A stretch of 64,000 nt of DNA from Candidatus Eiseniibacteriota bacterium (GCA_963792585.1 CAWBWI010000006.1:800001-864000), one strand, 5' to 3'; positions 38,903-63,343 are shown, counted from the first letter of the stretch. The notes: generated by a model from the sequence alone, not told the origin. Translations and numbers: made by a program.

Positions 38903-38919
38903 TCTCGGAAGTCACCCCA

Positions 38920-38962
38920 CGCCCCCCGCATCCGGTCGGATCGCGGGGGGCGCTGCTTTTTT
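38920..38962 (+). terminator. Rho-independent terminator
   Basis: CGCCCCCCGC-ATCCG..CGGAT-(C)GCGGGGGGCG stem followed by CTGCTTTTTT. Confidence 0.75.
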
Positions 38963-39059
38963 ATCTTCTTGCGGCGCTTGATGGTATCATCGGGAACGCG
39001 ACCGGACCGCTGCGACGGTGGATGGCGGGTTGGGGCTTGTTGGACACATGGGAGGAGCG

Positions 39060-47829: not shown

Positions 47830-48788
47830 GGACCGGTCCCTTCCGGTTTCCTGTGGCCGAACCGAAGCGCGGCGCGCGGGCGCCATCCCCCCCTCCGCCG
47901 GCAGCCCATCCCCGCCTTGGGGGATCTACCGCCGGTCAGGATACCTCATCGGAGAGGGCGGGCAAAGCTTCATCGCCTGCCCGCGTTACCGGTATTCCCG
48001 GGCCTCCCCCGGCGGGAGAGCCGGCAGCGGGTCTGCACTGTGAGGGCGGCCGACTTCATTTTTCAGTGATCTTAGCTATTTTTGACATGATCTCGGTGAC
48101 GCGTCCGGCCTGGGCCGGATCTCCGTGGGCGAAACGGGATTCGCGTCAGTCGTGCTTCCTCGAGATCGGATCGCGGCCGGCCCTGCGGCATCGGCTGTCA
48201 CCAATCCCCCACCACCGAGCCGGGGCGGAGCGTGGAGGTCCGCCTCCACCCGGGAACGCGGCATGATCTCGGCCGGGGTGGATCTGGGCGCGATCCCGGG
48301 GCGCGGCCAACAGGCGGGCGACCCGGCGATCCGAGGCCGCGCCCGTATCCGGCTTTGGCGGCGCAGCCATGTACGGGTGCCGGTCGCCGGCGCCGTCGAG
48401 GACTGCGAGATCGCGTTCGCGCGGGGGATCCTCGTTATCGTCCAGCGACTGCGCGCGCCAGACGATCGAGGCTCGACGACGCGGAGCAACGAGGGTCCGC
48501 GCGGACACAAGGAGCATGTGCGTGCGCATGACCGCGCGTATCGAGCTCCTCCGGGCACCGAAAGTAACTAATGTTAGGTGATGAATCCGCAGAGCTATTC
48601 GCCGCGATTCCGCGGTTCTCTTGCACGCTTTCACATAAGTCACGTGTTAAATCAATGTACATGATGTCATGATATCGCGTATAGTCGTCCCACGGGCACA
48701 ACACGGCGACCAAGGCACGGGCTAGGAACAGGGACGGCACCAGGCCCCGGGGGGGGAACCGTCGTATGGGTCCGTAGAAGGTACGGCT

Positions 48789-49835
48789 ATGCCGCGTCCG
48801 ATGCTCACCCAATCCCAGTGCTCCGAAATCAGCGCCTCCGTCGACACGATCCTGAGTGCGAATCCCCGAGGGAACGGGGAACTCCACGCCTACGCGACCC
48901 GCTTCGTCCACCCCGTGCTGTCGAGGCAATTCCCCGAGATTCCGGCGCTATCCCTGAGGGTGGCCGGACTCATGGCACTACTTAAGCCTATTGGGGGGGG
49001 ACCGCCGCCCCCGATTCTCCATCACGACCTGGACAACCGGGTCGAGTGGATCCTGAACGCGACACGGTCCACACCGTTGAATCCCGCCGAACTGGAGACG
49101 CAAGTCGCCATCGCCTACGGATGCGGTTGGAGGCGAAGTGCCCGGAACGTCCGCCAGCCCCAATGGGATGCCGTTCACTGGGCCGATGCTGTGCGGGAAC
49201 TGGTCATTCCCGCAAAGAAGCACATCAGCAGAGTCTGTCGGCGATTGGAGACGGATGTCCCCGGATTCCGCCTTCCGGGCCACCTGGACGTCGAGATGCT
49301 GGGTAACTACGCCGTAGGGGTGTTCGTGGGAATGCGGCCCACGACCACCCGGGTGTACCACCACCTTCAGTCGATCCACAACTGGAACCCCATGATGGGA
49401 AGCCTCTATGGGTGGCTATTGAGGGCTATCGACGGCTTTGGCACCGTCAAAGGAAACCTACAGGTCAATCGCTTCCGCAATGGCATTCTGTACCCCGTCC
49501 TCGAGGACGACGGTCTGCTCGCGATCGGCCGGGTTGCCTACCGGGAGTGCGCCGACTGCACGACGAGGACCGAGTACGACACCGCCGGTTCATGCAGATC
49601 CTGCCGGCACGGCGCTTCGGGCAAGCAGTCGTTCATTGTCGACAATGTCCGGTTGATCTGGCCACCAGCCTACATCACCATCACCTTCCGGAAGTGCCGG
49701 AGACCGAAATGCAAAACCTACGTCCGTGGAACGCAAACCCACTGCCCGCGCTGCGGGGGAAACCTCTCCCCCCGACTGACTCATCTCTACGTCCACAGGT
49801 ATCTGATCGAAGAGGACACTCCGCAGACCCCGTAG
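48789..49835 (+). CDS. Hypothetical protein with C-terminal double zinc ribbon
   Basis: 348 aa open frame; CADC, CRSC, CRRPKC, CPRC; central WNPMMGSLYGWLLRAI weakly resembles ECF sigma region 2. Confidence 0.65.
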   Translation: MPRPMLTQSQCSEISASVDTILSANPRGNGELHAYATRFVHPVLSRQFPEIPALSLRVAGLMALLKPIGGGPPPPILHHDLDNRVEWILNATRSTPLNPAELETQVAIAYGCGWRRSARNVRQPQWDAVHWADAVRELVIPAKKHISRVCRRLETDVPGFRLPGHLDVEMLGNYAVGVFVGMRPTTTRVYHHLQSIHNWNPMMGSLYGWLLRAIDGFGTVKGNLQVNRFRNGILYPVLEDDGLLAIGRVAYRECADCTTRTEYDTAGSCRSCRHGASGKQSFIVDNVRLIWPPAYITITFRKCRRPKCKTYVRGTQTHCPRCGGNLSPRLTHLYVHRYLIEEDTPQTP

Positions 49836-49848
49836 GGGGGATTCACCG

Positions 49849-50538
49849 ATGAGTGCGGCAACAAACCGACGACTCGACGATCTCGCCTCGCTCTTGACCC
49901 AGGTGCGTTTCAGTCACGAGCACGCTGACTACAAGGAAAGCCGCATCTGGAGGATCTTCGTCTATCCCCGCAAGGGAAAAGGAGATCGCTTCGACGCGCT
50001 CCTTTCCGTAATCCCGCGCAGGGGCCGCGAGGAACTCGGCGCCGAGCTGCTTCTCACGCTGAGCGGAGGCGGAAAGTTCTGGCTCGTCAACGGGCCGACC
50101 AATGCCAAGGGCCAGGTCTGGTTCCGGGATCTGCCGTCCGGCGAATATGCTCCTCATCTCGGGACGATGCCGCTCCTCCCACCCCGCGTCCCCGTGGCGA
50201 ACGAGCGTCCCGCCGCCTCGAGCAAACGCAATGTGAATCCCCATCCGCCCGACGCTTGGCCATCCTACGTACTCGCGGATCGACGCATCTCCGCCGCACT
50301 CCAACAAGAAACATCCGGCCTTGCCGTGCTCACATGGAAGACCCTCGAACCGGAATTGGCGGGTATGCGCATCGGCTTCCAGATTGCCGGCGAAAGCGGC
50401 GAGGTTCTCCTCAATCCAAGAGGGCGATCGACGCGCCCGACCGCGCGATGGACCTTGCAGCAATCCTATGAGCAAGTCGCCGCGTTCCTTCCCCGTTTCA
50501 CAATTAAGAAGAGGAGACGAGGCGTGCGGAGCAGTTGA
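49849..50538 (+). CDS. Hypothetical cytoplasmic protein, possible transthyretin/carboxypeptidase-regulatory-like beta sandwich
   Basis: GGGGGA RBS, 13 nt after the previous gene; TNAKGQVWFRDLPSGEY motif; no signal peptide. Confidence 0.6.
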   Translation: MSAATNRRLDDLASLLTQVRFSHEHADYKESRIWRIFVYPRKGKGDRFDALLSVIPRRGREELGAELLLTLSGGGKFWLVNGPTNAKGQVWFRDLPSGEYAPHLGTMPLLPPRVPVANERPAASSKRNVNPHPPDAWPSYVLADRRISAALQQETSGLAVLTWKTLEPELAGMRIGFQIAGESGEVLLNPRGRSTRPTARWTLQQSYEQVAAFLPRFTIKKRRRGVRSS

Positions 50539-50657
50539 CGCGCCCTGCGCGGGCCCGGTCCGATCGCATCACGAAACCGGCCGTCCGCCGACCTCACCCG
50601 AGTTTCCACGAGCGCGAAGATTCTTCATTTTTCCTGCCGGTCCCCCGCCAAGAAGAC

Positions 50658-50674
50658 ACTAAGACATTCTTAGT
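50658..50674. promoter_or_regulatory. Palindromic candidate operator
   Basis: ACTAAGA-CAT-TCTTAGT perfect 7-bp inverted repeat in an AT-rich patch upstream of the Ubl/Pup cluster. Confidence 0.45.
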
Positions 50675-51099
50675 CACTCCAGGCGCAGACGCGTCAGAAG
50701 GGGGTCCTCTCATGTCGTCCCGCAGTTGTCTTCCAGCCAAGCTCCACCCTCGTTGTCCCGGCAGGCCCGGCCTCTACTCGAACTCCTCCACCCTCCACCT
50801 CTCTCCTGCGCTCCCCTCGGCCATCGCTCTCGAGTCGATCCTCGCCCTGCGCGACGCGGACATACGGATTCGTCGGATCCGCCACGCGGCCGCGATCTCG
50901 ATCCATGTTCCTCCCTCGGAAACCAAAGCGACCCTAGAGACTCGGCGCGCGGCATAGCCCGCGCTCCGCGGACGCGACCGCATCCCCGGTGAAGGGACGG
51001 GCGCATGCGTTGCTGCGCGAAAGCGGGCGCGCGCTCCCACTCACCCGGGCTGAAAGCAGTCTCGTCGTGGTCGCCCACGATGGAAGGAGGAACCGCACC

Positions 51100-51726
51100 A
51101 TGGGGAAGGAACCGAACGCATCCGACTTCGACGATTCGGACGTCACCGAGCGGATTCGCAGGCTCGTGCGCCAGTTACGGATTCTGCACGAGAGGCTCAA
51201 CCGGATCGAGGAGTACGCGTATACCATTCTCGCGCTGCTCGAGGAGTTGGTCCAGGAAGTCGACACGAACCATGTTACGGCTCCCGCGGCCGCCTCGGGG
51301 CGGCCCGGCCGGATGATCCACGACCGGGCTGCGCTCCGTCGCATGGCCGAGTCGGGAGTCGCCTCGGTCAAGATCGAACGCCATGTCGACGGTTCGGCCA
51401 GTGTCCGCATCGACCGAAGCGACCCGTTCGAACTTTCGCCGGTCCTGGCCGACCTGCTCGAGATCCTCAGTCACGACTTCGGACGGATCACGGATGGCAT
51501 GGTTGGCTGGAAGTCCCGCGAGGAAGTTCGGCTTCTTCTGTCGAAGCAGGCGAACCGTGAAATCACCGAACACGCGCTCACCAACTCGATCTATCGACTC
51601 CGGAGCGAGTTGGAGTCGCGCGGCGGAGTGAATCCGTTCCTTCTGCAGACGACCAGGCGCGACGGGATCCGCTTCGCCGTCCTGCGACCGGGGCAATCAA
51701 CGGAATCGAAGGGAATCACCGAGTAA
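51100..51726 (+). CDS. Transcriptional regulator: N-terminal coiled coil plus OmpR/PhoB-like winged helix, no receiver domain
   Basis: AGGAGG RBS before ATG 51100; LSPVLADLLEIL..SREEV..LTNSIYRLRSELE..LLQTTRRDGIRF. Confidence 0.72.
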   Translation: MGKEPNASDFDDSDVTERIRRLVRQLRILHERLNRIEEYAYTILALLEELVQEVDTNHVTAPAAASGRPGRMIHDRAALRRMAESGVASVKIERHVDGSASVRIDRSDPFELSPVLADLLEILSHDFGRITDGMVGWKSREEVRLLLSKQANREITEHALTNSIYRLRSELESRGGVNPFLLQTTRRDGIRFAVLRPGQSTESKGITE

Positions 51727-51737
51727 GGAGGTCTTCC

Positions 51738-52280
51738 ATGGCTCTGATCTGGATGAAGCGCGACACGATGGCCTGGGCGGCCCTGCCTCTCGAAGCCGGG
51801 AGAATCCGTCTCGATACGGATCCGCCCCGTCGTCTGGAGGACGAGGCGATCGGATCCTCAGACGCGGACGGGGTCCTGCTGCTGAGGCAGTCGGGGGAGG
51901 ATGGAACCGTCTGGATCCTCCTTGCCGACACGAGGTGGAACGTGCGCGTCAACGGGCTCCCCCTGCCCGCCGGAATTCGGGCCCTCGCGGACCGCGACGA
52001 GATCCGGATCGGGGGCATGGAGTCCTGGTACTTCTCGACCGAGGAGTCACCACAGGTCGTCCCATTCCCGGAGGGCGGCGCGAATATCCACTGCCCTCGC
52101 TGCACGTTGGAGATTCAACCCGGGCGGCCGGCCGTCCGCTGCCCGAACTGCGCGGTCTGGCACCACCAAGATCCGGACAGGAAACTCCCCTGCTGGACCT
52201 ACGGGGAACGCTGCGGCGGGTGCGATCTGCAGGAAACCTCTTCCGAGGCGGAGTTCCGGTGGACTCCGTGCGGGTTGTGA
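51738..52280 (+). CDS. FHA-like domain plus prokaryotic RING-type finger (candidate E3/adaptor)
   Basis: AAGGAGGT RBS; VRVNG..L.D.DEIRIG (FHA C-terminal strands); C-x2-C-x12-C-x2-C-x4-H-x8-C-x6-C-x2-C from 52092. Confidence 0.75.
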   Translation: MALIWMKRDTMAWAALPLEAGRIRLDTDPPRRLEDEAIGSSDADGVLLLRQSGEDGTVWILLADTRWNVRVNGLPLPAGIRALADRDEIRIGGMESWYFSTEESPQVVPFPEGGANIHCPRCTLEIQPGRPAVRCPNCAVWHHQDPDRKLPCWTYGERCGGCDLQETSSEAEFRWTPCGL

Positions 52281-53389
52281 AACGCGTGGTGATCGTCGGG
52301 GCCGGCAACATCGGCTCGCACCTGGCGCCCATGATCGCCCGAATTGCCGAAGTCGGGCGGATCCTGGTGATCGATAGGGATCGATACGAGGGGAAGAACC
52401 TGACCGGGCAATCGATCACGGCCGCCGAGGTGGGTGGCGCGAAAGCGCGCGTGCAGGCGGCCGCGCTCCGCCGGATCTCTCCGGAGATCGAGGTTTCGTC
52501 GTTCGTCGGGGAGTTCGAGCACGTCCCCCTGGGATGGCTGCGCAGCGAGTTGATCCTTGGCTGCCTCGATTCGCGGCGCGGGAGGCAGAGCGTGAACGAA
52601 GCAGCCTTCCACCTCGGCATCCCATGGATCGACGGCGGCGTTCATCCCGACGGCCTCCTCGCGCGGGTGAACGTCTACCTCCCCGGCGCGGATCGTCCCT
52701 GCCTCGAGTGCGCCTGGGATGAGAACGACTACAGGAACATCGAGCAGGAGTATCCGTGCGAATCGGGCAAGGCCGGCGCGGTTCCATCGCCTCCCTCGAC
52801 TCAGGCGACGAATGCCCCTGCCGCCCTCGGCGCTCTGGCGGCCGCCTTGCAGGCGATCGAGGCCGGGAAGATCCTGACGGGTCGCGATGACCTCGTCGTG
52901 GGGGGTCGGCAGATCCAGATCGACGCCTCCCACCATACCCATTACGTGACGGCGTTTCGCCGAAACCACGCCTGCCGCTTCGGCGACCACGCCCCATGGA
53001 CGTTGATCGACCTCCCATCGGCCCCATCGAAGCTGAGGCTGCGCGACCTGGCGGCTCGTCTCCCCGGCAGTCCGGAGCCCCGCGATTGCGCGTTCTCGAT
53101 CGAGGGCCGGTCGTTCGCCCGCGCCCTGACATGTTCCGGGTGCGGTCGAAGGCGCGCCGTACTGCGCTTGGCGAAACTCCCGCCGGGTGGAGAAGGTCTC
53201 TGCCGGTCCTGCGGCGGTCGCATCGTGATCACCGGCGTCGACCGTCTCGATTGCATGGAGGGGAGCGAATTGCCCGCAAGAGATCTCGATCGCCCGCTCG
53301 GCGCGATCGGCGTCCGACCCGGCGACATCGTGCGCGCGGTTGCGGGAGAGGCGACTGCGCGCTTCGTGATCGGCGGAGATTCGGGGTGA
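52277..53389 (+). CDS. ThiF/E1-like ubiquitin-activating enzyme with a C-terminal Zn-ribbon-containing extension
   Basis: GTG 52277 overlaps the RING stop (GTGA); GAGNIG, DRD....KNL, K(A), CLDS...R, PCLEC, candidate catalytic Cys in EYPC, CRFGDH, CSGC..CRSC, LGAIGVRPGDIV. Confidence 0.88.
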   Translation: MKRVVIVGAGNIGSHLAPMIARIAEVGRILVIDRDRYEGKNLTGQSITAAEVGGAKARVQAAALRRISPEIEVSSFVGEFEHVPLGWLRSELILGCLDSRRGRQSVNEAAFHLGIPWIDGGVHPDGLLARVNVYLPGADRPCLECAWDENDYRNIEQEYPCESGKAGAVPSPPSTQATNAPAALGALAAALQAIEAGKILTGRDDLVVGGRQIQIDASHHTHYVTAFRRNHACRFGDHAPWTLIDLPSAPSKLRLRDLAARLPGSPEPRDCAFSIEGRSFARALTCSGCGRRRAVLRLAKLPPGGEGLCRSCGGRIVITGVDRLDCMEGSELPARDLDRPLGAIGVRPGDIVRAVAGEATARFVIGGDSG

Positions 53390-53522
53390 CGGAAGATAGA
53401 CCCGGGCGCGAAGCGATTGCGCTCGGACCTGTTGCATTCGGACGACACGTGATTTCCCGGCGCGAAACCGGAACGGGGGCCGAGCCGTGAAATCATGAGG
53501 TCGCGTCCAAGGAGGGGACCAA

Positions 53523-54047
53523 ATGGAAGACCGGATCTATGAAGCGTTCCTCGAAGAGCAGTTCGTCAGGGGAATGGAGCTCGCGCGCGCGAGCGACTTC
53601 CTCGAACTCGTTCCGGTGCACGGTGCGCCTCCGTCGATTTACGTCGCCACGTTCCATTCGAAGGGGCTCCTCCGCGCCCCGGATGGCGAGATCGTCGAGG
53701 GCGATCTCTTCGAGGTCGGCATCCGCTTGCCTCCCGAATACCTCCGTCGGGTCCATCCAGCCGAGATTCTGACCTGGCTCGGGCCTCCCACCATATTCCA
53801 TCCAAACGTGTCGTCTCCGTTCGTCTGCGTCGGCCGCATCGTGCCGGGCACGCCTCTCGTCGACATCCTCTACCAGGTCTTCGAGTTGATCGGCGGGACC
53901 AAGATCACGATGAACGAGGCGGACGCGCTCAACTTCGCCGCCTGTCAGTGGGCGCGGGCGCATCCGGAACGATTTCCGGTCGAGCGAAGACCTCTCAAGC
54001 GCCGCGCGATCCGCGTCGAGGCGCAGCCGGTGTCGGAGGCGTCATGA
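53523..54047 (+). CDS. UBC-fold E2 ubiquitin-conjugating enzyme-like protein
   Basis: AAGGAGG RBS; I.LP.EY...P, IFHPNV..FVC (HPN plus catalytic Cys), ALN.AA..W helix. Confidence 0.85.
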   Translation: MEDRIYEAFLEEQFVRGMELARASDFLELVPVHGAPPSIYVATFHSKGLLRAPDGEIVEGDLFEVGIRLPPEYLRRVHPAEILTWLGPPTIFHPNVSSPFVCVGRIVPGTPLVDILYQVFELIGGTKITMNEADALNFAACQWARAHPERFPVERRPLKRRAIRVEAQPVSEAS

Positions 54048-54952
54048 ACCGCTCATGGGAACGCCAGGAGACCGGAATCGCCCGCGCGATCCGGAAATCG
54101 GGCGCGGCATTTGCGAGGCCGGCGCCCGGCCGCTGGGAGCTCCACCTGTCGAACGGACATGCATTCAGCGTCGGCGCCGTCCTCGACACCGGCTGGCTCG
54201 TCCTCGAATCGCCGCTGCCCCGCTCGATGAGGATCCCGCCCGCGCCCGACTTGCTCTGCTCCAATGCCCACCTCCCGGGGCTGGCCAAGTTCGCCGACCG
54301 CGCATGCGGTAGGACCGTGAGCATCCAGGCGGAAATTCCGATCGGAGACGGGATCGACCTTGCCGCGCGGCTTCACGAGACTTTGAACGGCTTCTCTCGC
54401 GGCCATGCGATCGCCTCCGGGAAACCGATTCCGTACGGGGAGGCGTTCGGCGCGCCGGCGGACGACGCCCGAGCCTCTGCGGACCTCGCCGGCGGGGAAG
54501 CACTGGTGGCGCCCCGAGCGCTCGTTGCAGCGCTCCGGTCGGTCGGGTGGCCATACCTCGAACGCATCGACGGTTCGATCAGCGTGGAGCTGGAATCCGA
54601 TCACGGCTACCACCAGGCGCACCTCACGGCGGATCCGGAAGGGGCCTTCGCCGCGCGCGTCGGAGTGGCCGACTGGCGCGGCGCGTCGCCTCCCTCCCGG
54701 GAGGCCGCCGCATCCCTGCTGCTCGCGGCCAACAACGGTATGCGCATGGCCCGGGCCGTGGCGGTGGAGCAGGAAGAGCGCTGGGCGGGCCGATTCGAAG
54801 TCCGCCTCGGCAGCTCACCGTGCGACGCGGAGCTGCGTCACGTTCTCGCGGCGCTTTCCGTCGCGTGCCGTCACTGGGCGCGGGAGTTGAGATCACTAGA
54901 ACATCTTTCGACCGCCCAGGCATACCTGGCGGTTCGAGGGGGTCGGTCATGA
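54044..54952 (+). CDS. Hypothetical protein, probable tandem YbjN/type III chaperone-like domains
   Basis: ATGA overlap with E2; two similar halves (LLCSNAHL..AKFA..SIQAEIP and LLAANNGMRMARA..RFEVRL). Confidence 0.55.
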   Translation: MNRSWERQETGIARAIRKSGAAFARPAPGRWELHLSNGHAFSVGAVLDTGWLVLESPLPRSMRIPPAPDLLCSNAHLPGLAKFADRACGRTVSIQAEIPIGDGIDLAARLHETLNGFSRGHAIASGKPIPYGEAFGAPADDARASADLAGGEALVAPRALVAALRSVGWPYLERIDGSISVELESDHGYHQAHLTADPEGAFAARVGVADWRGASPPSREAAASLLLAANNGMRMARAVAVEQEERWAGRFEVRLGSSPCDAELRHVLAALSVACRHWARELRSLEHLSTAQAYLAVRGGRS

Positions 54953-54994
54953 ACACCCGACTCGGCCGGAGGGAAATCCACACAGGAGGAAACC

Positions 54995-55285
54995 ATGGGA
55001 TCGGATGAGAAGACGGGACTCGCGCTCCTGGTGAGTGACGCGTCTCAGCAGAAGATGGCCAATGTTCGCGACGTGCCGCCCGACGCCAGCATCGGCGAAC
55101 TGGTCCAGGGGCTCCTGGAGTCGTTGAGGCTTCCGAGTCAGGACGCCTCGGGACGTCCCCTGACCTACTGGGCCCGCCTCGACCGGGAGGGGCGCCATGT
55201 CCACGCTTCGGAGCGGGTGGGAGAAGCGCTCCTGCCCGGCGACCACCTGATCTTGAGCCCGAACATCGACGCCGGAGGTTGTTAG
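54995..55285 (+). CDS. Ubiquitin-like (beta-grasp, YukD/EsaB-like) modifier ending in Gly-Gly-Cys
   Basis: AGGAGG RBS; 96 aa; DVPPDASIGELV..L, LP......Y..., L.PGD.LILSPNIDAGGC; codons GGA GGT TGT TAG at 55274-55285. Confidence 0.85.
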   Translation: MGSDEKTGLALLVSDASQQKMANVRDVPPDASIGELVQGLLESLRLPSQDASGRPLTYWARLDREGRHVHASERVGEALLPGDHLILSPNIDAGGC

Positions 55286-55364
55286 GAAACCCGCTCGCGC
55301 AGACGCGCCGCAAGCGGCGCGCGCGTGCGGCGGCCGCGGATCACCACGGGGGAGGGACGAATCG

Positions 55365-56396
55365 ATGCTGACCAACCGGTGCCGTTTCGTGCTGCACGTC
55401 TTCCAGGGCGACGGGACGTCCCTCGGGCAATCGCCGGCCGAGATCGACTTCGAGCCGGCCCGTGAATGGACTCGGCTCCGAGCCATCCGACAGGGTTGCA
55501 CGCCCGCCGCCCTGTCCGGCGCGACCGAGTCCATCCTCCCCGTCTGGCACACCGAGATCGGGGAGCCGTATCTCGCGGGCTTTCGGGTCCGCCTCTCATT
55601 CGAGGACGGCGGGGTCACGTGCGCCTTTCCAATCACCTACTTCAAGGAAGCGGGCCAGGACGCCTCCAGGGCATACATGAAACGCGGCCACCTCAAGGAG
55701 GGCGATCGCTTCCTCTTCCTCGTAGCCGCACTTCCGGCGGATCCGACCGCGCGGCCTCGCAGGACCCTCGCGCTGACGACCGAGGAACTCATCCCGCAGC
55801 TGCCGATCCTGGAAACTCCGCTAACGGGCTTCGGCTGCGGCGTCGAATTCGCCGGACCCTCTGCGGACCGCGAGTTTCCCGTCTTCATCCCCCGCACGAT
55901 CCTGCAGGAGGCAGAGGAGCTCTGCCGTGCGGCGGGATCGATCGAGACGGGCGGGATCCTGATCGGCCGTCTCCATCGCGATCCGTCGATCCCGGAGGCC
56001 TTCCTCGAGATCACCGCCCAGATCCCGGCGCGGCATGCGATCGGGGAGAAGGCGAGCCTCACATTTACGCCCGACACCTGGGCGGACGCGCGCGCGGCAA
56101 TCGCCCTGCGCGCCCGCAATGAACTCAACGTCGGGTGGTGGCACTTCCACCCGGTCCGGTCCTGGTGCGATGGGTGCCCGCCGGAGAAAAAGCACGATTG
56201 CACCCTCGCCTGCAGCTTCTTCAGCGAGCAGGACCGGAAGCTTCACCGTGTCGTGTTTCCGGCCGCGTACAGCGTGGCCCTCGTCGTCAACGCCATCAAC
56301 TCGGGATCGATGACACCCTCGCTGTTCGGTTGGCGCGAAGGAACGATCACCGCCAGGGGCTTCTACCGCATCGACGCGCCCGTCACCGTCAACTGA
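55365..56396 (+). CDS. JAB/MPN+ (JAMM) metalloprotease with an N-terminal extra domain
   Basis: GGAGG RBS; ETGGILIG, VGWWHFHP, FSEQD...H. Confidence 0.88.
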   Translation: MLTNRCRFVLHVFQGDGTSLGQSPAEIDFEPAREWTRLRAIRQGCTPAALSGATESILPVWHTEIGEPYLAGFRVRLSFEDGGVTCAFPITYFKEAGQDASRAYMKRGHLKEGDRFLFLVAALPADPTARPRRTLALTTEELIPQLPILETPLTGFGCGVEFAGPSADREFPVFIPRTILQEAEELCRAAGSIETGGILIGRLHRDPSIPEAFLEITAQIPARHAIGEKASLTFTPDTWADARAAIALRARNELNVGWWHFHPVRSWCDGCPPEKKHDCTLACSFFSEQDRKLHRVVFPAAYSVALVVNAINSGSMTPSLFGWREGTITARGFYRIDAPVTVN

Positions 56397-56426
56397 GCCA
56401 GTCCAACGGCTGTTCAAGGAGGAAAG

Positions 56427-58130
56427 ATGCCCCGTGCGGCCCGCACCCAGCCCTCGCTTCCGTTTCTTCTGGACATGCTCGTTCACAATGCCGGGGAGGA
56501 GCCGCTGGACGGGCCGTCGTTCCACCACCTCCAGAGCCTGCGCGGTCAGTCGCCGGAGGTGAACCGCGAGATCGACATGATGCTCCTCGATCGCATGCGC
56601 CACCTGCACCGCGGGATGGCGGAGATCCAGGCGAGGCAGGACGAGCTGCGCGCGGTGATCGAGAAGCTGGGGGCTCCCCCCTATCATCCCGCCATCTATC
56701 TGGGGACGACGGAAACGGCCCGCGGCACGCTTGCGGTCGTCCACCACGGCAATGGGCGACGGTTCGTATCGGTGTCCGATTCGTGCGACCTCTCCTCCCT
56801 GTCGAGAGGCGACGGCGTCCTCCTGACCAATGAGCTGAATTGCCTTCTCGAGCGCGCGCCCAACCCTTCGCTCGCATGCGGCGAGACGGCCGTCTTCGAC
56901 CGCCTCGTCTCGGAGGATCGGGCGGTCCTCAAGTCGCGCGACGAAGAGACCGTCGCATGCTTGAGCGGCCCGCTCTCGGAGATCGGGCTGCGCGCGGGCG
57001 ACATCGTGCGGTGGGACCGGGGCGCAGGACTTGCGTTCGAAAAGATTCCGTCATCGAACGAGTCGAGCTTCTTCCTGGAGCACACCCCGCAGGAGACCTT
57101 CGCCGACATCGGCGGGCTGGACGACCGGATCGAGAAGATCTGCACCGTGATCCGACTCCAGATGGAGTCCCCGGATCTGTCGCGAAAGTACCGACTGCCG
57201 CCGAAACGATCGATCCTCCTGGTCGGTCCCCCGGGGACCGGCAAGACCATGCTGGCGCGCGCTTTGGCCAACTGGGTCGCAACGTTGGCTCCGTCGGGGC
57301 GCAGCCGTTTCATGTCGATCAAACCCGGCGAGATGAACTCGATGTGGTACGGCCAATCGGAGGCGATCATCCGTCAGACCTTCCATGCGGCGCGCGAGGC
57401 GGGAGAGACCGATCCCGATGTGCCCGTCGTCCTCTTCTTCGACGAGGTCGACTCGATCGGCGCGGCCCGCGGCGGGGCGCTGGGCCACATCGACGATAAG
57501 GTCCTCGAGGCGTTCATGGTCGAGCTCGAGGGACTCCAGGACCGCGGGAACGTGCTCGTCGTCGCCGCCACGAACCGACGCGACCTGCTCGACAGCGCCC
57601 TGGTGCGGCCCGGACGCCTCGGGGACCTGGAGATTCGCGTTCCGAGGCCGGGGGTCGAGGAAGCGCGGGAAATCCTCCGCAAGTACCTGCGGGACGACAT
57701 GCCGTACGCCGCGAACGGAAACGGCGGCGACCCGGATCTCGAGCGCGCCGCGATCGTCGACGCCACGGTCTCCCGGATCTTCGCCCAGAACGGCGAGAGC
57801 GACGTGGCGACGGTCGTCTTCCGCGACGGGAAGCAGCGCACCGTCCAGATGAAGGACATCGTCAGCGGGGCGATGATCAAGAAGCTCGCACGGGACGCCT
57901 CGGAGGCCGCGTGCATCCGCGAGGGTTCCACCGGCGAGGCGGGGATCCGTCTCGAGGACATGCTGACCACACTCACGGCCGAAATGGAGATGGCCGCGCT
58001 CTCCCTGACCCCGGCCAATTGCCGGAGCCAGTTGGAGAACCTCCCTCAGGATGTCGACGTCGTACGGGTCGATCCGGTCCGCCGCCGCGTCGCAGGCCCG
58101 CACCACTACATCCGTCTACAGGAAGTCTGA
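56427..58130 (+). CDS. arc: ARC/Mpa-type AAA+ ATPase (coiled coil, OB domains, AAA)
   Basis: AGGAGG RBS; coiled coil ending EKLGAPP; FADIGGLD, GPPGTGKT, VLFFDEVDS, ATNRRDLLDSALVRPGRL, VSGAMI. Confidence 0.85.
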   Translation: MPRAARTQPSLPFLLDMLVHNAGEEPLDGPSFHHLQSLRGQSPEVNREIDMMLLDRMRHLHRGMAEIQARQDELRAVIEKLGAPPYHPAIYLGTTETARGTLAVVHHGNGRRFVSVSDSCDLSSLSRGDGVLLTNELNCLLERAPNPSLACGETAVFDRLVSEDRAVLKSRDEETVACLSGPLSEIGLRAGDIVRWDRGAGLAFEKIPSSNESSFFLEHTPQETFADIGGLDDRIEKICTVIRLQMESPDLSRKYRLPPKRSILLVGPPGTGKTMLARALANWVATLAPSGRSRFMSIKPGEMNSMWYGQSEAIIRQTFHAAREAGETDPDVPVVLFFDEVDSIGAARGGALGHIDDKVLEAFMVELEGLQDRGNVLVVAATNRRDLLDSALVRPGRLGDLEIRVPRPGVEEAREILRKYLRDDMPYAANGNGGDPDLERAAIVDATVSRIFAQNGESDVATVVFRDGKQRTVQMKDIVSGAMIKKLARDASEAACIREGSTGEAGIRLEDMLTTLTAEMEMAALSLTPANCRSQLENLPQDVDVVRVDPVRRRVAGPHHYIRLQEV

Positions 58131-58131
58131 C

Positions 58132-59772
58132 ATGAGGAGACAGGGAAGACGTCGGAGGCGTGTGAACTCGTCGAACTTCGGTCCGCAGATCCCAAAACTG
58201 TGTGGGGCGGACGTCGAGCTGGGCAATTTCGTGCTCGGCGTTGGGGCCGGCGATGACACATGCGCGGAGGCGGCCCATGCGCTTCTCTACCGGATCGAGG
58301 GATTGCCGCGACGACGGTGGTACCAGCAACAGGCGCTCGCCTACACGGACTCCATGGGGGTGCTGCACATCACCCCCGGCCGAACCAATCCGCAGGACTG
58401 GGGACGGCGGTACCTCTCCTCGAACGGGGGTTGCGTCTACATCGATCTGAATCACCTGGAGATCTGTCTCCCCGAGGTCCGGAGCGCCTGGGATCACGTA
58501 GCCGCCTGGCACGCGATGCTCCGGATCGCCCGCGCGGCGCAAGAGGCCACGATCGCACACCGCTCGTCCGAACGCCGGATCCAGGTCCTCGCGAACAACA
58601 GCGACGGCCGGGGCAACTCCTATGGGAGCCACCTCGACCTTCTCGTGACGCGGCAGGCCTGGGACAACATCTTCGAGCGCAAGCTCCAGTATCAGCTCTT
58701 CCTCGCCGCGCACCAGGTGTCGAGCATCGTGTATGCGGGCGCGGGCAAGGTGGGGAGCGAGAACCGCGCCCCCGACGCGACCTTCCAGCTCTCGCAGCGG
58801 GCCGACTTCTTCGAGCGGATTTGCGGGGTGGAGACGACCTTCAACCGGCCGATCGTCAACTCGCGCGACGAAGCCCTGTGCGGGCGCTCGTCGATCCAAG
58901 AAGAGAACGTCCCGGCCGATCGGATGGCCCGCCTCCACGTGATCTTCTACGACAGCACTCTGAGCCATGTCGCCTCCCTGCTGAAGGTGGGCGCGATGCA
59001 GATCGTCCTGGCGATGATCGAGGCCGAGTGCGTGCCGATCCGGTTCGCGCTGGAGGATCCGCTGCGGGCCCTGCGGGAGTGGAGCCGGGATCCCGCGATG
59101 CGGGTCCGGGCCGAAACCGTCGGCGGGGCTCACCTGACCGCCGTCGAGCTGCAGATGCGGATCGTAGAACAGGCCCGTCGCTTCATCGATCGTGGTGGTT
59201 GCGACGGCATCGTCCCGCGGGCCGAGGAGATCCTCTCCCTCTGGGAGGAGACCCTCACCCTGCTCGAGGCGGGGGACATCGCGACCCTCGCCCCACGCGT
59301 CGACTGGGCGTTGAAGCTCACGGCGCTGACCCGCGCTCTCGACCGCAGGAGGGATCTGGACTGGGGATCCCCGGAAATCAAATACCTCGACCACCTGTAT
59401 TCGAGTCTCGACCCGAACGAGGGGCTCTATTGGGGCTACGAACGCAGTGGGGTCACCCAATCGGTGGTGTCCGAACTCGAGATCGACCGTTTCGTGTCCG
59501 AGCCGCCCGCCGACACGCGCGCATGGAGTCGCGCGCACCTGATGCGCCTCGCTGGTCCCGACCGGATCGACGATGTGGATTGGGACTCGATCCGCTTTCG
59601 TCTGAACGGGGACGGCGCCTGGACACGGCGCCGCACCTTCGAGATGGCCGATCCCCTCGCCTTCACCGAGGCCGAGGCCGCGTCGATCGTCTACAGCGGC
59701 GCCGACCTGGAGACCGTCCTGGATGCACTCGAAGAACTCAATGAAAGGAGCGTGAGCCATGTCACCGGGTGA
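58132..59772 (+). CDS. dop: Pup ligase/deamidase family protein, Dop-like
   Basis: GADVE (GhExE variant), Dop-loop-like insert, NGG.VYID..H.E, NNSDGRG.SYGSH, FQLSQRADF...GVETT..RPIVNSRDE, RLHVI, DW.LK, P..TRA..R, DW..I, DP. Confidence 0.78.
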   Translation: MRRQGRRRRRVNSSNFGPQIPKLCGADVELGNFVLGVGAGDDTCAEAAHALLYRIEGLPRRRWYQQQALAYTDSMGVLHITPGRTNPQDWGRRYLSSNGGCVYIDLNHLEICLPEVRSAWDHVAAWHAMLRIARAAQEATIAHRSSERRIQVLANNSDGRGNSYGSHLDLLVTRQAWDNIFERKLQYQLFLAAHQVSSIVYAGAGKVGSENRAPDATFQLSQRADFFERICGVETTFNRPIVNSRDEALCGRSSIQEENVPADRMARLHVIFYDSTLSHVASLLKVGAMQIVLAMIEAECVPIRFALEDPLRALREWSRDPAMRVRAETVGGAHLTAVELQMRIVEQARRFIDRGGCDGIVPRAEEILSLWEETLTLLEAGDIATLAPRVDWALKLTALTRALDRRRDLDWGSPEIKYLDHLYSSLDPNEGLYWGYERSGVTQSVVSELEIDRFVSEPPADTRAWSRAHLMRLAGPDRIDDVDWDSIRFRLNGDGAWTRRRTFEMADPLAFTEAEAASIVYSGADLETVLDALEELNERSVSHVTG

Positions 59773-59968
59773 TGAATTGAGGATCCGGCCCGCGACCCAA
59801 CGACAGGGGCCCGGCAGCGAAGCGGCGGCAGAGGGGGGAGGATCCCTCGAAAGCCTCCGCGCCCAGGGAGAACGGCTTCTGGCCGCGAGCGATGAGGCAA
59901 TCGACCGGGCCCTCTCGGGAGACAGCGAGGCATTCCACCGCGCGAACAGGCAACACGGAGGTCAGTAG
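59759..59968 (+). CDS. pup: Pup-like prokaryotic modifier ending GGQ
   Basis: AAAGGAG RBS; 69 aa; low-complexity N-terminus; C-terminal SDEAIDRALSGDSEAFHRANRQHGGQ parallels Pup LLDEIDDVLEENAEDFVRAYVQKGGQ; lies between the dop-like and pafA-like genes. Confidence 0.85.
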   Translation: MSPGDELRIRPATQRQGPGSEAAAEGGGSLESLRAQGERLLAASDEAIDRALSGDSEAFHRANRQHGGQ

Positions 59969-59970
59969 CC

Positions 59971-61623
59971 TTGGTTCCGCGCCTCATGGGGTTGGAGTCG
60001 GAGTACGCCCTCGCCGGCCATGGACCGGCGAGGGATTCCGCGGGCCCGGACGCGTTGCTCTCCCTGCTGCAGGAAACCGCCAGAAATCGGCTGCTGCATC
60101 TTTCCGGCATGCGGGACGCCGGGATCTTTCTGGCCAACGGATCGCGGTTCTACATCGACGCCGGCGGACACCCTGAGATGTGTTCTCCCGAGTGCACCAA
60201 CCCTTGGGATCTCGTTCGTTACTGCTTTGCAAATGAGCGCACGCTCTCCGGACTGCTCGACGCCATGCGTGGCTCCCTGCCGCCCGGCGCCGACCTCGCC
60301 CTGTACAAGTGCAACGTCGACTACGGCGGGACCCGCGCGACCTGGGGATGCCACGAGAGCTATCTCCACCGGATGGACCCCTGCCCGCTCCATGAGCAAC
60401 TGATCCCCCACCTCGTCTCGCGTGTCATCTATGCGGGGGCCGGAGGTTTCGACTCGACCTCTTCGGGTCTGACATTCCTGCTGTCGCCGCGCGCCGCCCA
60501 CATCTTCCGCGTCTCCTCGGATCAATCGACCGGGGACCGCGGGATCATTCACACGAAGGACGAATCCCTGACGAACCGCCGCTATCACCGCCTCCATCTG
60601 ATCCTGGGGGAGAGCCTCTGCTCCGAGACCGCGCTGTGGCTGAAGTTCGGGGTGACAGCGCTGATCGTCGGCATGGTCGAAGGAGGGCTCCTCCCGGGGC
60701 GCGACGTCGAACTCGCCGATCCGCTGGCCGCGTTCCGAACCTTCGCCGGGGATCCCACGTGCCGGGCGACCGCCCCATCCCGCGACGGGCGCCGGCTGAG
60801 CGCCCTCGCGATCCAGCGTGTCTACCTCGCGTATGCGGAATCGCACCTGGGCGCCGCGTTCATGCCCGAATGGACGGAACGTGTCTGCGCCGCGTGGCGG
60901 GGCTGCCTGGATCGCCTCGAGGGGGCCCCGACCTCGGTCGCAACCACCCTCGACTGGGCGATCAAGTACGCCCTCTTCACCGCCCACCTCCACCGTCAGG
61001 GAACGAGCTGGGAAGCAATGCTTTGCTGGACGGAGGTGATCGACGAGATCTATCGCTGCGCCCGGTTGGGTGGCATGACGGAGCGGCCCGTCACACTGGA
61101 GAAGCTGATCGGTCCCCGGGGGCCGATGCGCATGACCGCGGTCGGCCTCTCGCCGCTCCTGCGCGAACACGGCGAGGCCTGGGACCGGCTACCCCGTTTC
61201 CAGCAGGTGCGGCGCGAGCTGTTCGAGCTGGATGTGCGCTTCGGAGAGATCGGAATGCGCGGGCTCTTCAGTCGGATGGATCGCGCCGGCCTCCTATCGC
61301 ACAAAGTCGAAGGGGTGGAGCCGATCGATCCGGCCACCTCCGTTCCCCCGGCGGAGGGGCGGGCCCACCTGCGCGGAGAGTGGATCCGCCATCTCGCGAG
61401 CGCCCGCAAGCGGGCACAGTGCGACTGGGAGTCGGTCATGGACTATGAGCGCGGCCGGGTCCTCGATCTCGGCGACCCCTTCGCGACGGAGGAGACATGG
61501 ATGGACTTCCCGGAGTACGAGCGCAATGCGATGGGTCCGTCGGGATTCGGGCTCGCGGAGGACTCCCTCCGAATCCGGCGCATCCTCCTCCGTCGTCACC
61601 TGGCCGGCACGGAGGAGGGCTGA
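59971..61623 (+). CDS. pafA: Pup ligase/deamidase family protein, PafA-like ligase
   Basis: RLMGLESEY, FLANGSRFYIDAGGHPE..SPEC, LYKCNVD..WGCHESY, SPRA.HI, RLHLILG, LDWAIK, RAHLRG, DW..V..DPF; TTG start 9 nt after a GGAGG. Confidence 0.82.
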   Translation: MVPRLMGLESEYALAGHGPARDSAGPDALLSLLQETARNRLLHLSGMRDAGIFLANGSRFYIDAGGHPEMCSPECTNPWDLVRYCFANERTLSGLLDAMRGSLPPGADLALYKCNVDYGGTRATWGCHESYLHRMDPCPLHEQLIPHLVSRVIYAGAGGFDSTSSGLTFLLSPRAAHIFRVSSDQSTGDRGIIHTKDESLTNRRYHRLHLILGESLCSETALWLKFGVTALIVGMVEGGLLPGRDVELADPLAAFRTFAGDPTCRATAPSRDGRRLSALAIQRVYLAYAESHLGAAFMPEWTERVCAAWRGCLDRLEGAPTSVATTLDWAIKYALFTAHLHRQGTSWEAMLCWTEVIDEIYRCARLGGMTERPVTLEKLIGPRGPMRMTAVGLSPLLREHGEAWDRLPRFQQVRRELFELDVRFGEIGMRGLFSRMDRAGLLSHKVEGVEPIDPATSVPPAEGRAHLRGEWIRHLASARKRAQCDWESVMDYERGRVLDLGDPFATEETWMDFPEYERNAMGPSGFGLAEDSLRIRRILLRRHLAGTEEG

Positions 61624-61804
61624 AGGCGGCGGAGGACGCAAGCCCGCGCCGCGCAGCTGCGCTTGCCGTTCGACTGAGTCTGTAAGACGCAGGTAAGAGG
61701 CGCCTGGGATCTTCCTCTCATCCACCCGACATCGGTTCCGTCACGCGCTCGGACGAGGGCGGAGAAGGGACCGGAGCCGTCGGGAGGAGAAAAGGAGGTC
61801 CAAG

Positions 61805-63343
61805 ATGACCACCCATGGGGCACTCGATCGGTTCTCCAGGTCCGACTCGCCCTCGAATCGAACCGCGGGATGGATGGCAGCGGCCGCGACGGCGGCGAGC
61901 GCACTTCTGCTGCTCGCTGCGATCGTGGGTGTCGCACAAGCCCGGATCTGTCTCTCGAACATGAAGATCAACAATGCGTCTCCGGTCCTGATCCACTGCG
62001 GGGACACGGTGAATCTCGACTGCTCCGTCGACTACGAGATCGACAACGAGACGATGAGCGCGGGCCCCTGCATCAATGTTGCCGCGCCCGCCGACCTCAC
62101 GGCGCAAATCTGGGACGACGACGGGTGGTTTGGACACGAATGGTACAAGTCATGGATGGTCACCATTCCGGATGACCCCCCGTCGGGGACGGTCAACTTC
62201 ACCATTCCGTTGGACTGCACCAGCGCACCCGAGTGCGAGGACTGCAAGATCCTGGGGGACGAAAACGAGGCCGAGGTCTTCCTAGCCTTCTGGAATGAGC
62301 TGAGTTGTCCGGGTTCCGCGGTCACGATCGCCCGCTGCATCTGCGGCAATTGCGGCCACCGGACCTCCCTGGGAGACGGCGGCGGCGTGCGGGGCACGGT
62401 GGCGACGTTCGACTGGAACACCGACGCGCCATTCCAGGCGGTGATGGGCTTCAGCGGCGCGATTCGGTTCGACCCGAACGCCTACCAGTACTCATCGCTG
62501 GTATTCACCGATCCCTTCGTCCAAGCCCACGCGCAGGTGACTCCGACCGCGACCGGCGTCGCATTCCAGGCTCATTTCCCGGCCCCGTACGACCTGCTGG
62601 TCGGCTCCTTCGGGCAACTGGATCTCGGAATCCTGCCGAACGCCCCGCTGGCGGAGACTTGGATCGCGTTCGATCCTCAGACGGTCTTCTTGGATCAGGC
62701 CGGGCAGTCGATTCCTTGCTGCAAGGTGGATGGAGTCGGACGCACCCTTCCGGTCGACCAAACCGCTCCGCAGATCATCGCGCCCCTCGTGACCTTCGAT
62801 TCCTGCACGCTGATGGGGCGGCCGGGAAGCATCGTGGATGAATACCTTGGGCTCGTTCCCAACTACGTCACGGTGGATGCGTACATGGGCAACGAGTATC
62901 TCGGATTTCGGGATGTCGATCCGGACGGGAGTTTTTCCTTCCCGAATCTCACGCTTCCGGCGGGATCGGTGATTCAATTCTTCGCGCACGACCGCAACGG
63001 AAACACGGGGCAGACCCAGTTCGGCCCGGCCGGGTCCTGCACCGCGACCGTCGATGAACCGTCTCTCGAGGCCGGCGGGATTCGGCTCGCGCCGAATCCG
63101 TTGCGTGATCGAGGGGTCATCACCTTCCATATCCCCGAAGCGGGCTCCGGGACGCTGGAGGTCCTGGACGCCGCCGGCCGCTCGGTGCGACGGATGGATC
63201 TGCCCGCACTCCGCGCGGGAACGCAGGAACTCCCGTGGGACGGCCGGGACGATCGTGGGGAGCTGCTTCCGTCGGGCATCTACTACTATCGTGTGCGGAC
63301 GGCCGATCGGCTGTTCCGTGGAAGCCTCGCGGTCATTCACTGA
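61805..63343 (+). CDS. Secreted Cys-rich protein with a cohesin-like/Ig region and FlgD-Ig C-terminal domain
   Basis: AAGGAGG RBS; signal peptide ending AQA; PNP..WDGRDD.G..LPSGIYYY. Confidence 0.8.
   Translation: MTTHGALDRFSRSDSPSNRTAGWMAAAATAASALLLLAAIVGVAQARICLSNMKINNASPVLIHCGDTVNLDCSVDYEIDNETMSAGPCINVAAPADLTAQIWDDDGWFGHEWYKSWMVTIPDDPPSGTVNFTIPLDCTSAPECEDCKILGDENEAEVFLAFWNELSCPGSAVTIARCICGNCGHRTSLGDGGGVRGTVATFDWNTDAPFQAVMGFSGAIRFDPNAYQYSSLVFTDPFVQAHAQVTPTATGVAFQAHFPAPYDLLVGSFGQLDLGILPNAPLAETWIAFDPQTVFLDQAGQSIPCCKVDGVGRTLPVDQTAPQIIAPLVTFDSCTLMGRPGSIVDEYLGLVPNYVTVDAYMGNEYLGFRDVDPDGSFSFPNLTLPAGSVIQFFAHDRNGNTGQTQFGPAGSCTATVDEPSLEAGGIRLAPNPLRDRGVITFHIPEAGSGTLEVLDAAGRSVRRMDLPALRAGTQELPWDGRDDRGELLPSGIYYYRVRTADRLFRGSLAVIH

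Follow-up and report, generated by a model that had tools for sequence, protein, structure and literature searches.

Pupylation and ubiquitin-type conjugation are usually treated as independent analogues. Here, we describe an operon in a 64,000-nucleotide (nt) stretch of DNA from a Candidatus Eiseniibacteriota bacterium (GCA_963792585.1, CAWBWI010000006.1:800001-864000; hereafter, the window) in which genes for both chemistries stand in one row and appear to be wired to a single motor, an ATPase of the ARC/Mpa type. Among the related systems, UBact has its own type of tag and is linked to proteasome genes, and in corynebacteria that lack a proteasome, ARC drives the disassembly of ferritin. 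Tri-ligase ubiquitin-like (Ubl) systems with a Prok-RING E3 were reportedly described in prokaryotes by Burroughs in 2011.

Kaur et al. 2020 (eLife, PMC7159879) describe the Burroughs tri-ligase systems second-hand, and the available passages of that paper contain one sentence on the coupling of a Ubl with Pup, leaning to degradation. In the available sections of Iyer 2008 (PMC2588565), Pup ligases unlinked to a proteasome are reported from Rhodopirellula and Plesiocystis, together with membrane segments, and no Ubl kit is mentioned in those sections. The parts of PMC8755798 at hand describe how Pup of Mycobacterium binds the coiled coil of Mpa and threads its disordered N terminus into the pore, and they state that eukaryotic substrates need both ubiquitin and a separate unstructured region. 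Docking of Mpa on the 20S core is attributed in excerpts of PMC8223512 and PMC8755798 to an HbYX-type motif.

An intact operon encodes a Ubl kit, a Pup kit, and an ARC ATPase

The operon consists of eleven intact open reading frames (ORFs) in one direction, spanning positions 51100-61623 of the window in the order wHTH, RING, E1, E2, tandem YbjN, Ubl, JAB, ARC, Dop, Pup, and PafA. Its features are as follows, with the best family matches and their expectation values (E) in parentheses.

51100-51726, + strand: putative winged helix-turn-helix (wHTH) regulator with an OmpR-type C-terminal domain, accessory (Trans_reg_C only, E 0.039)
51738-52280, + strand: predicted E3, an N-terminal domain plus a Prok-RING_1 finger (Prok-RING_1, E 2e-4)
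52277-53389, + strand: E1 of the ThiF/MoeB fold with an extra C-terminal Cys cluster (ThiF, 6e-30)
53523-54047, + strand: E2 with an HPN motif and Cys102 (UQ_con, E 0.07)
54044-54952, + strand: tandem YbjN/type-III-chaperone-fold protein of 302 amino acids (aa), predicted substrate adaptor
54995-55285, + strand: Ubl (tag 1), beta-grasp, predicted mature end A93-G94
55286-55364, + strand: GC-rich stem-loop that follows the Ubl stop and lacks a U tract (-36.6 kcal/mol, calculated without a shuffle control)
55365-56396, + strand: long JAB/JAMM peptidase with an N-terminal domain of ~160 aa and a Cys-rich insert (Prok-JAB, E 3e-3)
56427-58130, + strand: ARC/Mpa-type AAA+ ATPase with coiled coil, OB domains, and AAA domain (pup_AAA, 1e-90; AAA and proteasomal OB domain)
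58132-59772, + strand: predicted Dop-type deamidase/depupylase (TIGR03688 1e-82 over TIGR03686 9e-66)
59759-59968, + strand: Pup-like tag (tag 2) with a low-complexity N-terminal leader, C-terminal GGQ, and no lysine
59971-61623, + strand: predicted PafA-type ligase with a ~70-aa insert at residues ~350-418

These eleven genes had been listed by an earlier reading of the same DNA, the original prediction, and every ORF is open at its claimed position, all of them co-directional. The six junctions it had described are likewise exact (GTGA at 52277, ATGA at 54044, 30 nt between JAB and the ATPase, 1 nt between the ATPase and dop, a 14-nt overlap of dop and pup, and 2 nt between pup and pafA); larger gaps, absent from that description, separate E1 from E2 (133 nt), YbjN from Ubl (42 nt), and Ubl from JAB (79 nt). 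The absence of a terminator between the modules, also part of the prediction, agrees with a terminator scan that returned two sites, both intragenic, versus 7.6 expected from shuffles. A single DNA contig of a ~95%-identical strain covers positions 48512-62500, the JAB-ATPase junction included. The E1-E2 gap (53390-53522, 133 nt) is predicted to form two hairpins (-59.6 kcal/mol, no control), and in homologs this junction accommodates insertions of up to 2.5 kb; the sequence of the stem-loop at 55286-55364 is not conserved. Homologs of the wHTH gene head the operon in many loci.

The two kits are linked in three phyla

The linkage goes well beyond chance, judging from gene order in metagenomes and from the contig of the close strain. 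In a Dop-based metagenome scan, for which the best 80 of 284 relatives were used (not dereplicated, and favoring close relatives), the gene order was violated in 0/80 loci, and Pup and PafA were each present in 54/55. Linkage of PafA/Dop to ThiF, E2, and JAB genes in other genomes, for which the original prediction had proposed a search, was found and is strongly conserved: 45/49 informative loci have JAB upstream of Dop, and E2, Ubl, and JAB occur together in 24 of the 25 loci with at least 6 kb of upstream sequence (all six Ubl-side genes in 21/25). At the JAB-ARC junction, the median distance is -8 nt (50 loci, starts chosen automatically), and the two genes usually overlap.

Of 206 host-phylum genomes, 11 gave Pup_ligase matches, and 5 of these, the host included, carry the operon. 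It is also present in one Planctomycetales and one Gemmatimonadales metagenome-assembled genome, bringing the distribution to three phyla. When searched from the Ubl side, the E2 clade was recovered from 6/206 host-phylum genomes and 7/401 genomes of a Planctomycetota sample; the Pup module is present in 11 of these 13, and the remaining two loci are truncated by contig ends. A Gemmatimonadota sample gave JAB profile matches in 8/401 genomes, and the five strongest, which were examined, all carry the Pup module. The Planctomycetota and Gemmatimonadota samples each contain the genome that was chosen as their center. The operon is real, widespread, and intact. Its horizontal spread is suggested by the patchy distribution, the flanks that vary between loci, and a quick E1 tree in which phyla are mixed.

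The same patchiness, probable mobility, and differing flanks would fit unrelated cassettes that hitchhike side by side and share no functional link. Against this stand an order that stays the same in three phyla, between proteins of 35-60% identity, and a central junction that usually overlaps. We give this explanation almost no credence; the synteny counts have already largely refuted it.

Beside these loci, two divergent Pup-linked operons (L207 and L208) encode a Ubl that ends in PG, not AG, and an E1 that groups with planctomycete kits lacking Pup; the two kits may have been joined here a second time, independently. Extra pafA-like paralogs follow the operon at L038 (11783-16606, three PafA-like ORFs) and L088 (14931-16550, two). 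Single divergent genes of the Pup_ligase family occur at L031-L034 (genomes G003, G036, and G035 and contig C14 of G046), and their surroundings (~9 kb) revealed neither ARC nor Pup nor a Ubl kit.

Both kits and the ATPase retain near-invariant catalytic residues

The predicted E3 had been called FHA-like/RING, and the RING part of this name holds: Prok-RING_1 is present in 33/35 homologs, the best Protein Data Bank (PDB) match is the RING-H2 protein EL5 (E 6e-4), and seven Cys together with H143 are kept in 32-33 of 33 homologs. The FHA part found no support, with no FHA match among the 25 of 30 Pfam families (35 homologs) and the 60 of 65 PDB matches listed. In the E1, C161, C142/C145/C233, and C286/289/309/312 are present in 34/34 homologs, and from its position C161 is likely the catalytic Cys. 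All 35 E2 homologs retain H93-P94-N95 and C102, and a profile search paired the E2 with eukaryotic Ubc (E 0.004).

The predicted model of the YbjN-like protein has two repeats (predicted local distance difference test [pLDDT] score, 73.5). Foldseek paired it with YbjN 6vu7 at a probability of 1.00 but an E of 0.02, returning no match at E <= 0.001, and the ESM Atlas placed it with YbjN clusters at 0.89; together, this is moderate evidence that the 302-aa protein would adopt a tandem YbjN fold.

The Ubl had been predicted to end in GG-C, and this candidate conjugation end was dropped in favor of AG. The mature end is likely Ala-Gly, with G95-C96 removed as a leader, because A93-G94 is invariant (41/41) and stands directly before the stop in 13/40 homologs. 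Assignment of the Ubl to the beta-grasp fold is a profile match to the MoaD-like protein 2m19 at E 0.014, in which AG falls on the C-terminal GG of that protein. The JAB protein retains E194, H260, H262, S287, and D290 (the JAMM motif) in 45/45 homologs, and its predicted model (pLDDT, 93) matches Rpn11/CSN5 in Foldseek (E 5e-9, alignments of ~170 columns). The sequence features of a tri-ligase Ubl system are all found, namely, an E1 with nucleotide motif and Cys, an E2 with HPN and Cys, a RING, a JAMM peptidase, and a beta-grasp tag ending in Gly. Neither the Ubl nor the E2 has a PADLOC match, and the E1 and JAB have only partial-domain matches, in a 2023 library that may lack Bil models.

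Both paralogs of the Pup kit match Pup_ligase (1e-91 and 3e-87). The product of the Dop gene matches Dop structures at 2e-59 versus 1e-28 for PafA, and it has the Dop-type D-x2-H spacing after the catalytic Asp in 67/67 sequences, with a variable loop at the Dop-loop site; the first metal-binding Glu of its GhExE motif is replaced by Asp (GhDxE, D27 in 67/68). In the PafA paralog, E9, E11, and D63 are present in 49/49, the D-x3-H spacing in 45/48, and the alpha-loop His in 40/49, with the caveat on its class that its overall similarities to Dop and PafA are about equal. The spacing criteria are those in the available part of Hecht et al. (PMC7947786). Between these paralogs sits the gene for the Pup-like tag, whose homologs all end in G[QE] (62/62; GG[QE] in 58/62) and which had no match in a Pfam scan. 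The ATPase retains K273, D339, E340, N383, and R397 (Walker A/B, sensor, and Arg finger) in 51/51. The three enzymes score below the curated cut-offs of TIGR03686/03688/03689 (305/505, 278/492, and 231/551 bits), and the sequence features of a pupylation system (tag end, Dop and PafA paralogs, and an OB-AAA ATPase with intact motor motifs) are all present. From these near-invariant predicted catalytic residues, both tagging kits look active.

A sister operon carries a second Ubl kit in place of the Pup kit

Weaker E2 matches led to a sister operon with the order RING-E1-E2-YbjN-Ubl-JAB-ARC in eight genomes from two phyla, at the following loci.

L181, L182, L198, L199, L200/L203, L201, L202, L204: sister operon

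In 6/6 sister loci that reach past ARC, a second Ubl kit stands where Dop-Pup-PafA would stand, comprising Ubl2, an E2-like protein with a conserved Cys, JAB2, and ThiF2 (the L204 contig stops before ThiF, and the L202 Ubl2 is divergent and was assigned by position). PF03136 was absent from 5/5 sister genomes tested, with G301 and G369 outside the test; G046 is a sister-operon genome with separate Pup loci, including a canonical ARC(GQYL)-Dop-PafA at L035 (contig C18). The sister ARC aligns with the window ARC over 512 columns (probability 99.9%) and keeps the Walker motifs, which indicates that ARC travels with the Ubl kit and not with Pup. The first Ubl of the sister operon ends in HLG in 7/7 found, one of them bearing a short extension.

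Ubl2 has a Pup-like, low-complexity leader of 36-39 residues and low hydrophobicity. When scored against a profile of 57 Pup leaders, with bias correction switched off, 6/6 Ubl2 leaders fell within the top 7% of 477 control N termini; 0, 0, 2, 11, 31, and 33 controls scored at least as high as the respective leaders. Since the Pup kit is replaced while the first Ubl kit and ARC stay, E3-Ubl-JAB-ARC forms a constant core with a swappable second tag, and the position held by the Pup kit would be one for tags whose leader is disordered. This swappable second module, with the division of labor it implies, is the new element of this study; the swapped module was not found in the literature searched, with most subscription journals and three Aravind-lab papers outside reach.

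The second kit resembles PRTRC in that JAB2 matches PRTRC_A (8e-11 and 1.5e-7, all below cut-off) and the E2-like protein is nearest to Prok-E2_D clusters, its nearest Atlas clusters being mostly viral. We presume that the Ubl2 tail is comparable to PRTRC protein C. The sister clade forms one long-branched group in a quick E1 tree (support, 97; careful search unfinished and L200 omitted as short) and a clade in a quick ARC tree (support, 99; long-branch warning; outgroup consisting of a canonical ARC plus two fragments of paralogs). The root of both trees is unreliable, so the direction of the module swap is left unclaimed.

An accessory gene for a Clp-D1-like AAA protein accompanies both versions of the operon (28 Pup-type loci and 2 sister loci).

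L037:13616-14869 and 27 other loci; L199:9774-11027; L200: Clp-D1-like gene, after pafA or, in the sister operon, after ARC

Its product has an unassigned N-terminal domain and a single AAA domain with a mostly intact Walker A and a degenerate Walker B motif; an inactive E2 was considered for the N-terminal domain and found no support. In one subgroup, the Clp-like gene is followed by a conserved protein of ~680 aa with no Pfam match (L054:14514, L066:12848, L075:12255, and L088:16534).

ARC lacks a docking tail, and no 20S proteasome was found in the host genomes

A C-terminal GQYL or hydrophobic-Tyr/Phe-X (HbYX) docking tail is present in 0/50 ARC homologs, and the window ARC ends in LQEV, unlike the canonical ARC at L035, which ends in GQYL. 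The earlier remark that the locus has no proteasome genes can be extended to the whole host assembly (84% complete), where the sole PF00227 match is HslV. A 20S proteasome was detected in 0/16 host genomes, of which 6 were searched with PF00227, matching only HslV in 6/6, and 10 with the TIGR03691 20S alpha model, which was positive only in archaeal controls and had no bacterial positive control. Neither of the defining features of a Pup-proteasome system, prcA/prcB genes and a GQYL/HbYX end on the ATPase, is thus found.

These observations bear on a degradative role, in which ARC would hand tagged proteins to HslV, to Clp, or to a proteasome that the assemblies do not contain; Kaur et al. 2020 suggest that targets are degraded. 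HslV is present in 6/6 genomes tested, the Clp-D1-like gene often follows pafA, and ARC has a conserved Tyr-Leu a few residues from its C terminus, all of which would suit such a handover. The missing docking tails and the 16 genomes in which no 20S was found argue the other way, as do JAB being the only conserved peptidase member of the operon and two traits of the Clp-like protein, its degenerate Walker B motif in a single AAA domain and its absence from the host genome (G000). We regard degradation as improbable.

Two tags may serve one motor

The two tags likely cooperate, marking proteins for unfolding rather than proteasomal destruction, because the operon order is kept in phyla where the genomes searched yielded no proteasome and because the Pup kit is swapped for a Ubl kit. 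The reading we favor, though tentatively and with slightly less than even confidence, is a proteasome-free two-tag protein-remodeling machine in which the Ubl would mark the substrate and ARC, threading the Pup or Ubl2 tail, would unfold or extract the marked protein. The starting points are observed genes, their order, their catalytic residues, the lack of a docking tail, the lack of a 20S in the searched genomes, and the module exchange, from which we infer the role, all of the chemistry, the sharing of one substrate by the tags, and the sequence in which they are added. In this scheme, JAB would trim the Ubl to Ala-Gly, and the E1 would adenylate it and hand it over via C161 to C102 of the E2. 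The RING and YbjN proteins would choose the substrate, to which the cascade would attach the Ubl, a folded tag without a long leader that would serve as the E3-selected mark. Dop would deamidate Pup-GGQ, and PafA would ligate Pup to the same protein or complex. ARC would then thread the disordered leader of Pup, or of Ubl2, and so unfold or extract the substrate, and the Rpn11-like JAB, whose gene usually overlaps that of ARC, would recycle the tags together with Dop. Such a machine would be a bacterial version of the eukaryotic two-part proteasome signal, a folded tag plus an unstructured initiation region, minus the 20S barrel.

A bolder form of this scheme, which we consider doubtful, is a mobile, proteasome-free counterpart of 19S/p97: an E3-selected Ubl and a chemically interchangeable threader tag, either Pup joined by a glutamine-synthetase-fold ligase or a leader-bearing Ubl attached by a second E1/E2, would be ligated in sequence to one substrate, and ARC and its Rpn11-like JAB would extract or dismantle that substrate, for example, a protein complex of an invader. 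If true, a two-part degron would be encoded as two separately ligated tags.

Several points weigh against the two-tag remodeling machine. Its evidence consists of sequence and synteny. Every genome used is an assembly, with completeness of 75-100% or unstated. The sister operon of G607 is split between two contigs. The second-kit E2 is a weak assignment (Prok-E2_D in 13-20% of nearest-cluster members; recognition score 1651, below 2300; no Pfam match), and the similarity between Ubl2 and Pup leaders may be compositional, the six Ubl2s being related and non-independent. RING and E1 are missing from the locus at L045, L046, and L048; L069 has Dop and PafA alone; and L056 has a truncated ARC with nothing upstream. 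L081 and L085 retain YbjN-ARC-Dop without Ubl and JAB (L081 also RING; L085 also Pup and PafA), and L088 has both kits with no ARC in the locus.

The last three loci also favor parallel tags, that is, co-regulated kits with different targets, in which the Ubl blocks its targets in a Bil-like manner and Pup or Ubl2 sends others to ARC. This would agree with the separate maturase/eraser in each kit and with L172, L173, L175, L176, and L178, where the fetched sequence contains RING-E1-E2-Ubl-JAB and neither ARC nor Pup. However, loci with a replaced Pup kit still have ARC next to JAB and the first Ubl kit, and the ARC-less kits L172-L178 occupy their own branch of the quick E1 tree, although the divergent Pup-linked L207 and L208 join it. 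We judge parallel tags to be rather unlikely.

Pupylation of the Ubl by PafA had been one option in the original prediction; in a strict relay of this kind, K20 of the Ubl would be the site, giving substrate-Ubl-Pup chains. K20 is the only conserved Ubl lysine (34/41), and the 70-residue insert of the PafA clade could bind a specific partner. The relay is weakened by the 5/39 Ubls that have no lysine in the folded core and by the L038 Ubl, which has none at all; moreover, an equivalent lysine is present in 4/6 Ubls from loci whose fetched sequence has no Pup genes, and among sister-clade Ubls only 1/7 has it. It appears quite unlikely. What stands of the predicted mechanism are the intact-looking chemistries, the conserved linkage, and likely unfolding or disassembly by ARC, while pupylation of the Ubl and a role in defense have lost ground. 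For the favored machine, cooperation of the two tags is testable in a single 10.5-kb construct, and the sister operon offers a natural swap experiment that separates recognition from pore threading.

Genomic neighborhood and possible role

The patchy distribution points to a likely role in conflict or stress. Defense had been considered plausible, and the neighbors give it no clear support, leaving it weakly backed. The flank survey comprised 107 ORFs at 26 loci, selected with a crude coding filter and with no random control. PADLOC identified one full-length AbiEi among these 107, its other matches being generic domains, and Pfam identified two PIN, two TIR, four DUF4062-NACHT or WD40-repeat ORFs (three loci), and three transposase ORFs; the remainder are mostly housekeeping genes, with no clear defense-island signature. 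In viral contigs, three pattern-based scans of low sensitivity detected nothing related to Dop, the E2, or the E2 of the second kit, plasmids gave no match to the sister ARC at 1e-20, and the window contains no tRNA genes. Metatranscriptome data of a relative (three assemblies) show even, shallow coverage of operon and flanks alike, a pattern indistinguishable from DNA carry-over.

Upstream of the operon lie two unannotated genes, at 48789-49835 (+ strand, with a Cys-rich C terminus) and 49849-50538 (+ strand). A paralog of the first, 80% identical, lies on contig C2 at ~155.9-156.9 kb; the surrounding island comprises ORFs that, by eye, we take to be SAVED-HNH, a CD-NTase-like nucleotidyltransferase, ImmA/XRE, and IS21. 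The operon is set among large, probably secreted protein genes, several with FlgD-Ig C-terminal tails (37247-42863, 44123-46576, and 61805-63343), and the GC content is ~63% at 46-51 kb versus ~66% elsewhere. In other loci, the operon is often flanked by long helix-turn-helix/sugar-binding-type regulators (L069, L080, L093, L095, and L099), presumably SorC-like, and at L038, L101, and L164 by sigma-54 activators.

Comparison with known systems

The original prediction knew of no characterized system that combines both chemistries. No characterization of a Ubl-Pup operon and no bench test were found in the literature searched, where Burroughs 2011, 2012, and 2015 were outside reach and may say more; the coupling itself is already mentioned in the available passages of Kaur et al. 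2020. Those passages share with the present operon, which also occurs in Planctomycetota, the coupling of a Ubl kit to a Pup kit; unlike here, they give no gene list and mention no ARC, YbjN, missing proteasome, or swappable module. The two are very probably the same system, and no accessions of the loci are given in these passages or in two supplements, although other source-data files may name them.

With actinobacterial pupylation, as described in the available parts of PMC2588565, PMC7947786, PMC8223512, and PMC8755798, the operon shares the arc-dop-pup-pafA order, the G[EQ] end, the Dop/PafA spacing, and an OB-AAA ATPase. It differs in its scores below the TIGRFAM cut-offs, the lack of prcBA and of a GQYL end, the Asp in Dop, the insert in PafA, and the complete Ubl cascade upstream. 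UBact is linked to proteasome genes, and there are none at the present locus.

Tri-ligase Ubl systems share with the operon a separate E1, E2, RING, JAB, and Ubl, and the planctomycete operons L172-L178 share the Ubl family and AG end of the window Ubl; added here are the tandem YbjN, the long JAB, ARC, and a second tagging kit. For the second kit of the sister operon, the PRTRC cassette (TIGR03735-8) is similar in JAB2 (to PRTRC_A), ThiF, and an E2-like protein near Prok-E2_D, and the kit differs from it in scores below cut-off, the long Ubl2 leader, and its joining to ARC and a first Ubl kit.

Bil/Bub systems (Gong et al., PMC11601603) likewise perform bacterial E1/E2/Ubl/JAB conjugation; in the available part of that paper, their gene lists include neither RING nor AAA ATPase nor Pup (Bub adds DUF6527), unlike the operon. 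Their limited gene set and family-level match are not found here, given the extra RING, YbjN, ARC, and Pup and no full-length PADLOC match. The operon nevertheless bears on a question left open in the available part of PMC11601603, the effect of a Ubl tag on its target in bacteria without a proteasome. Collectively, by its sequence features, the operon is pupylation and tri-ligase Ubl conjugation in kind, departs from Pup-proteasome systems in their defining features, and is distinct from Bil/Bub.

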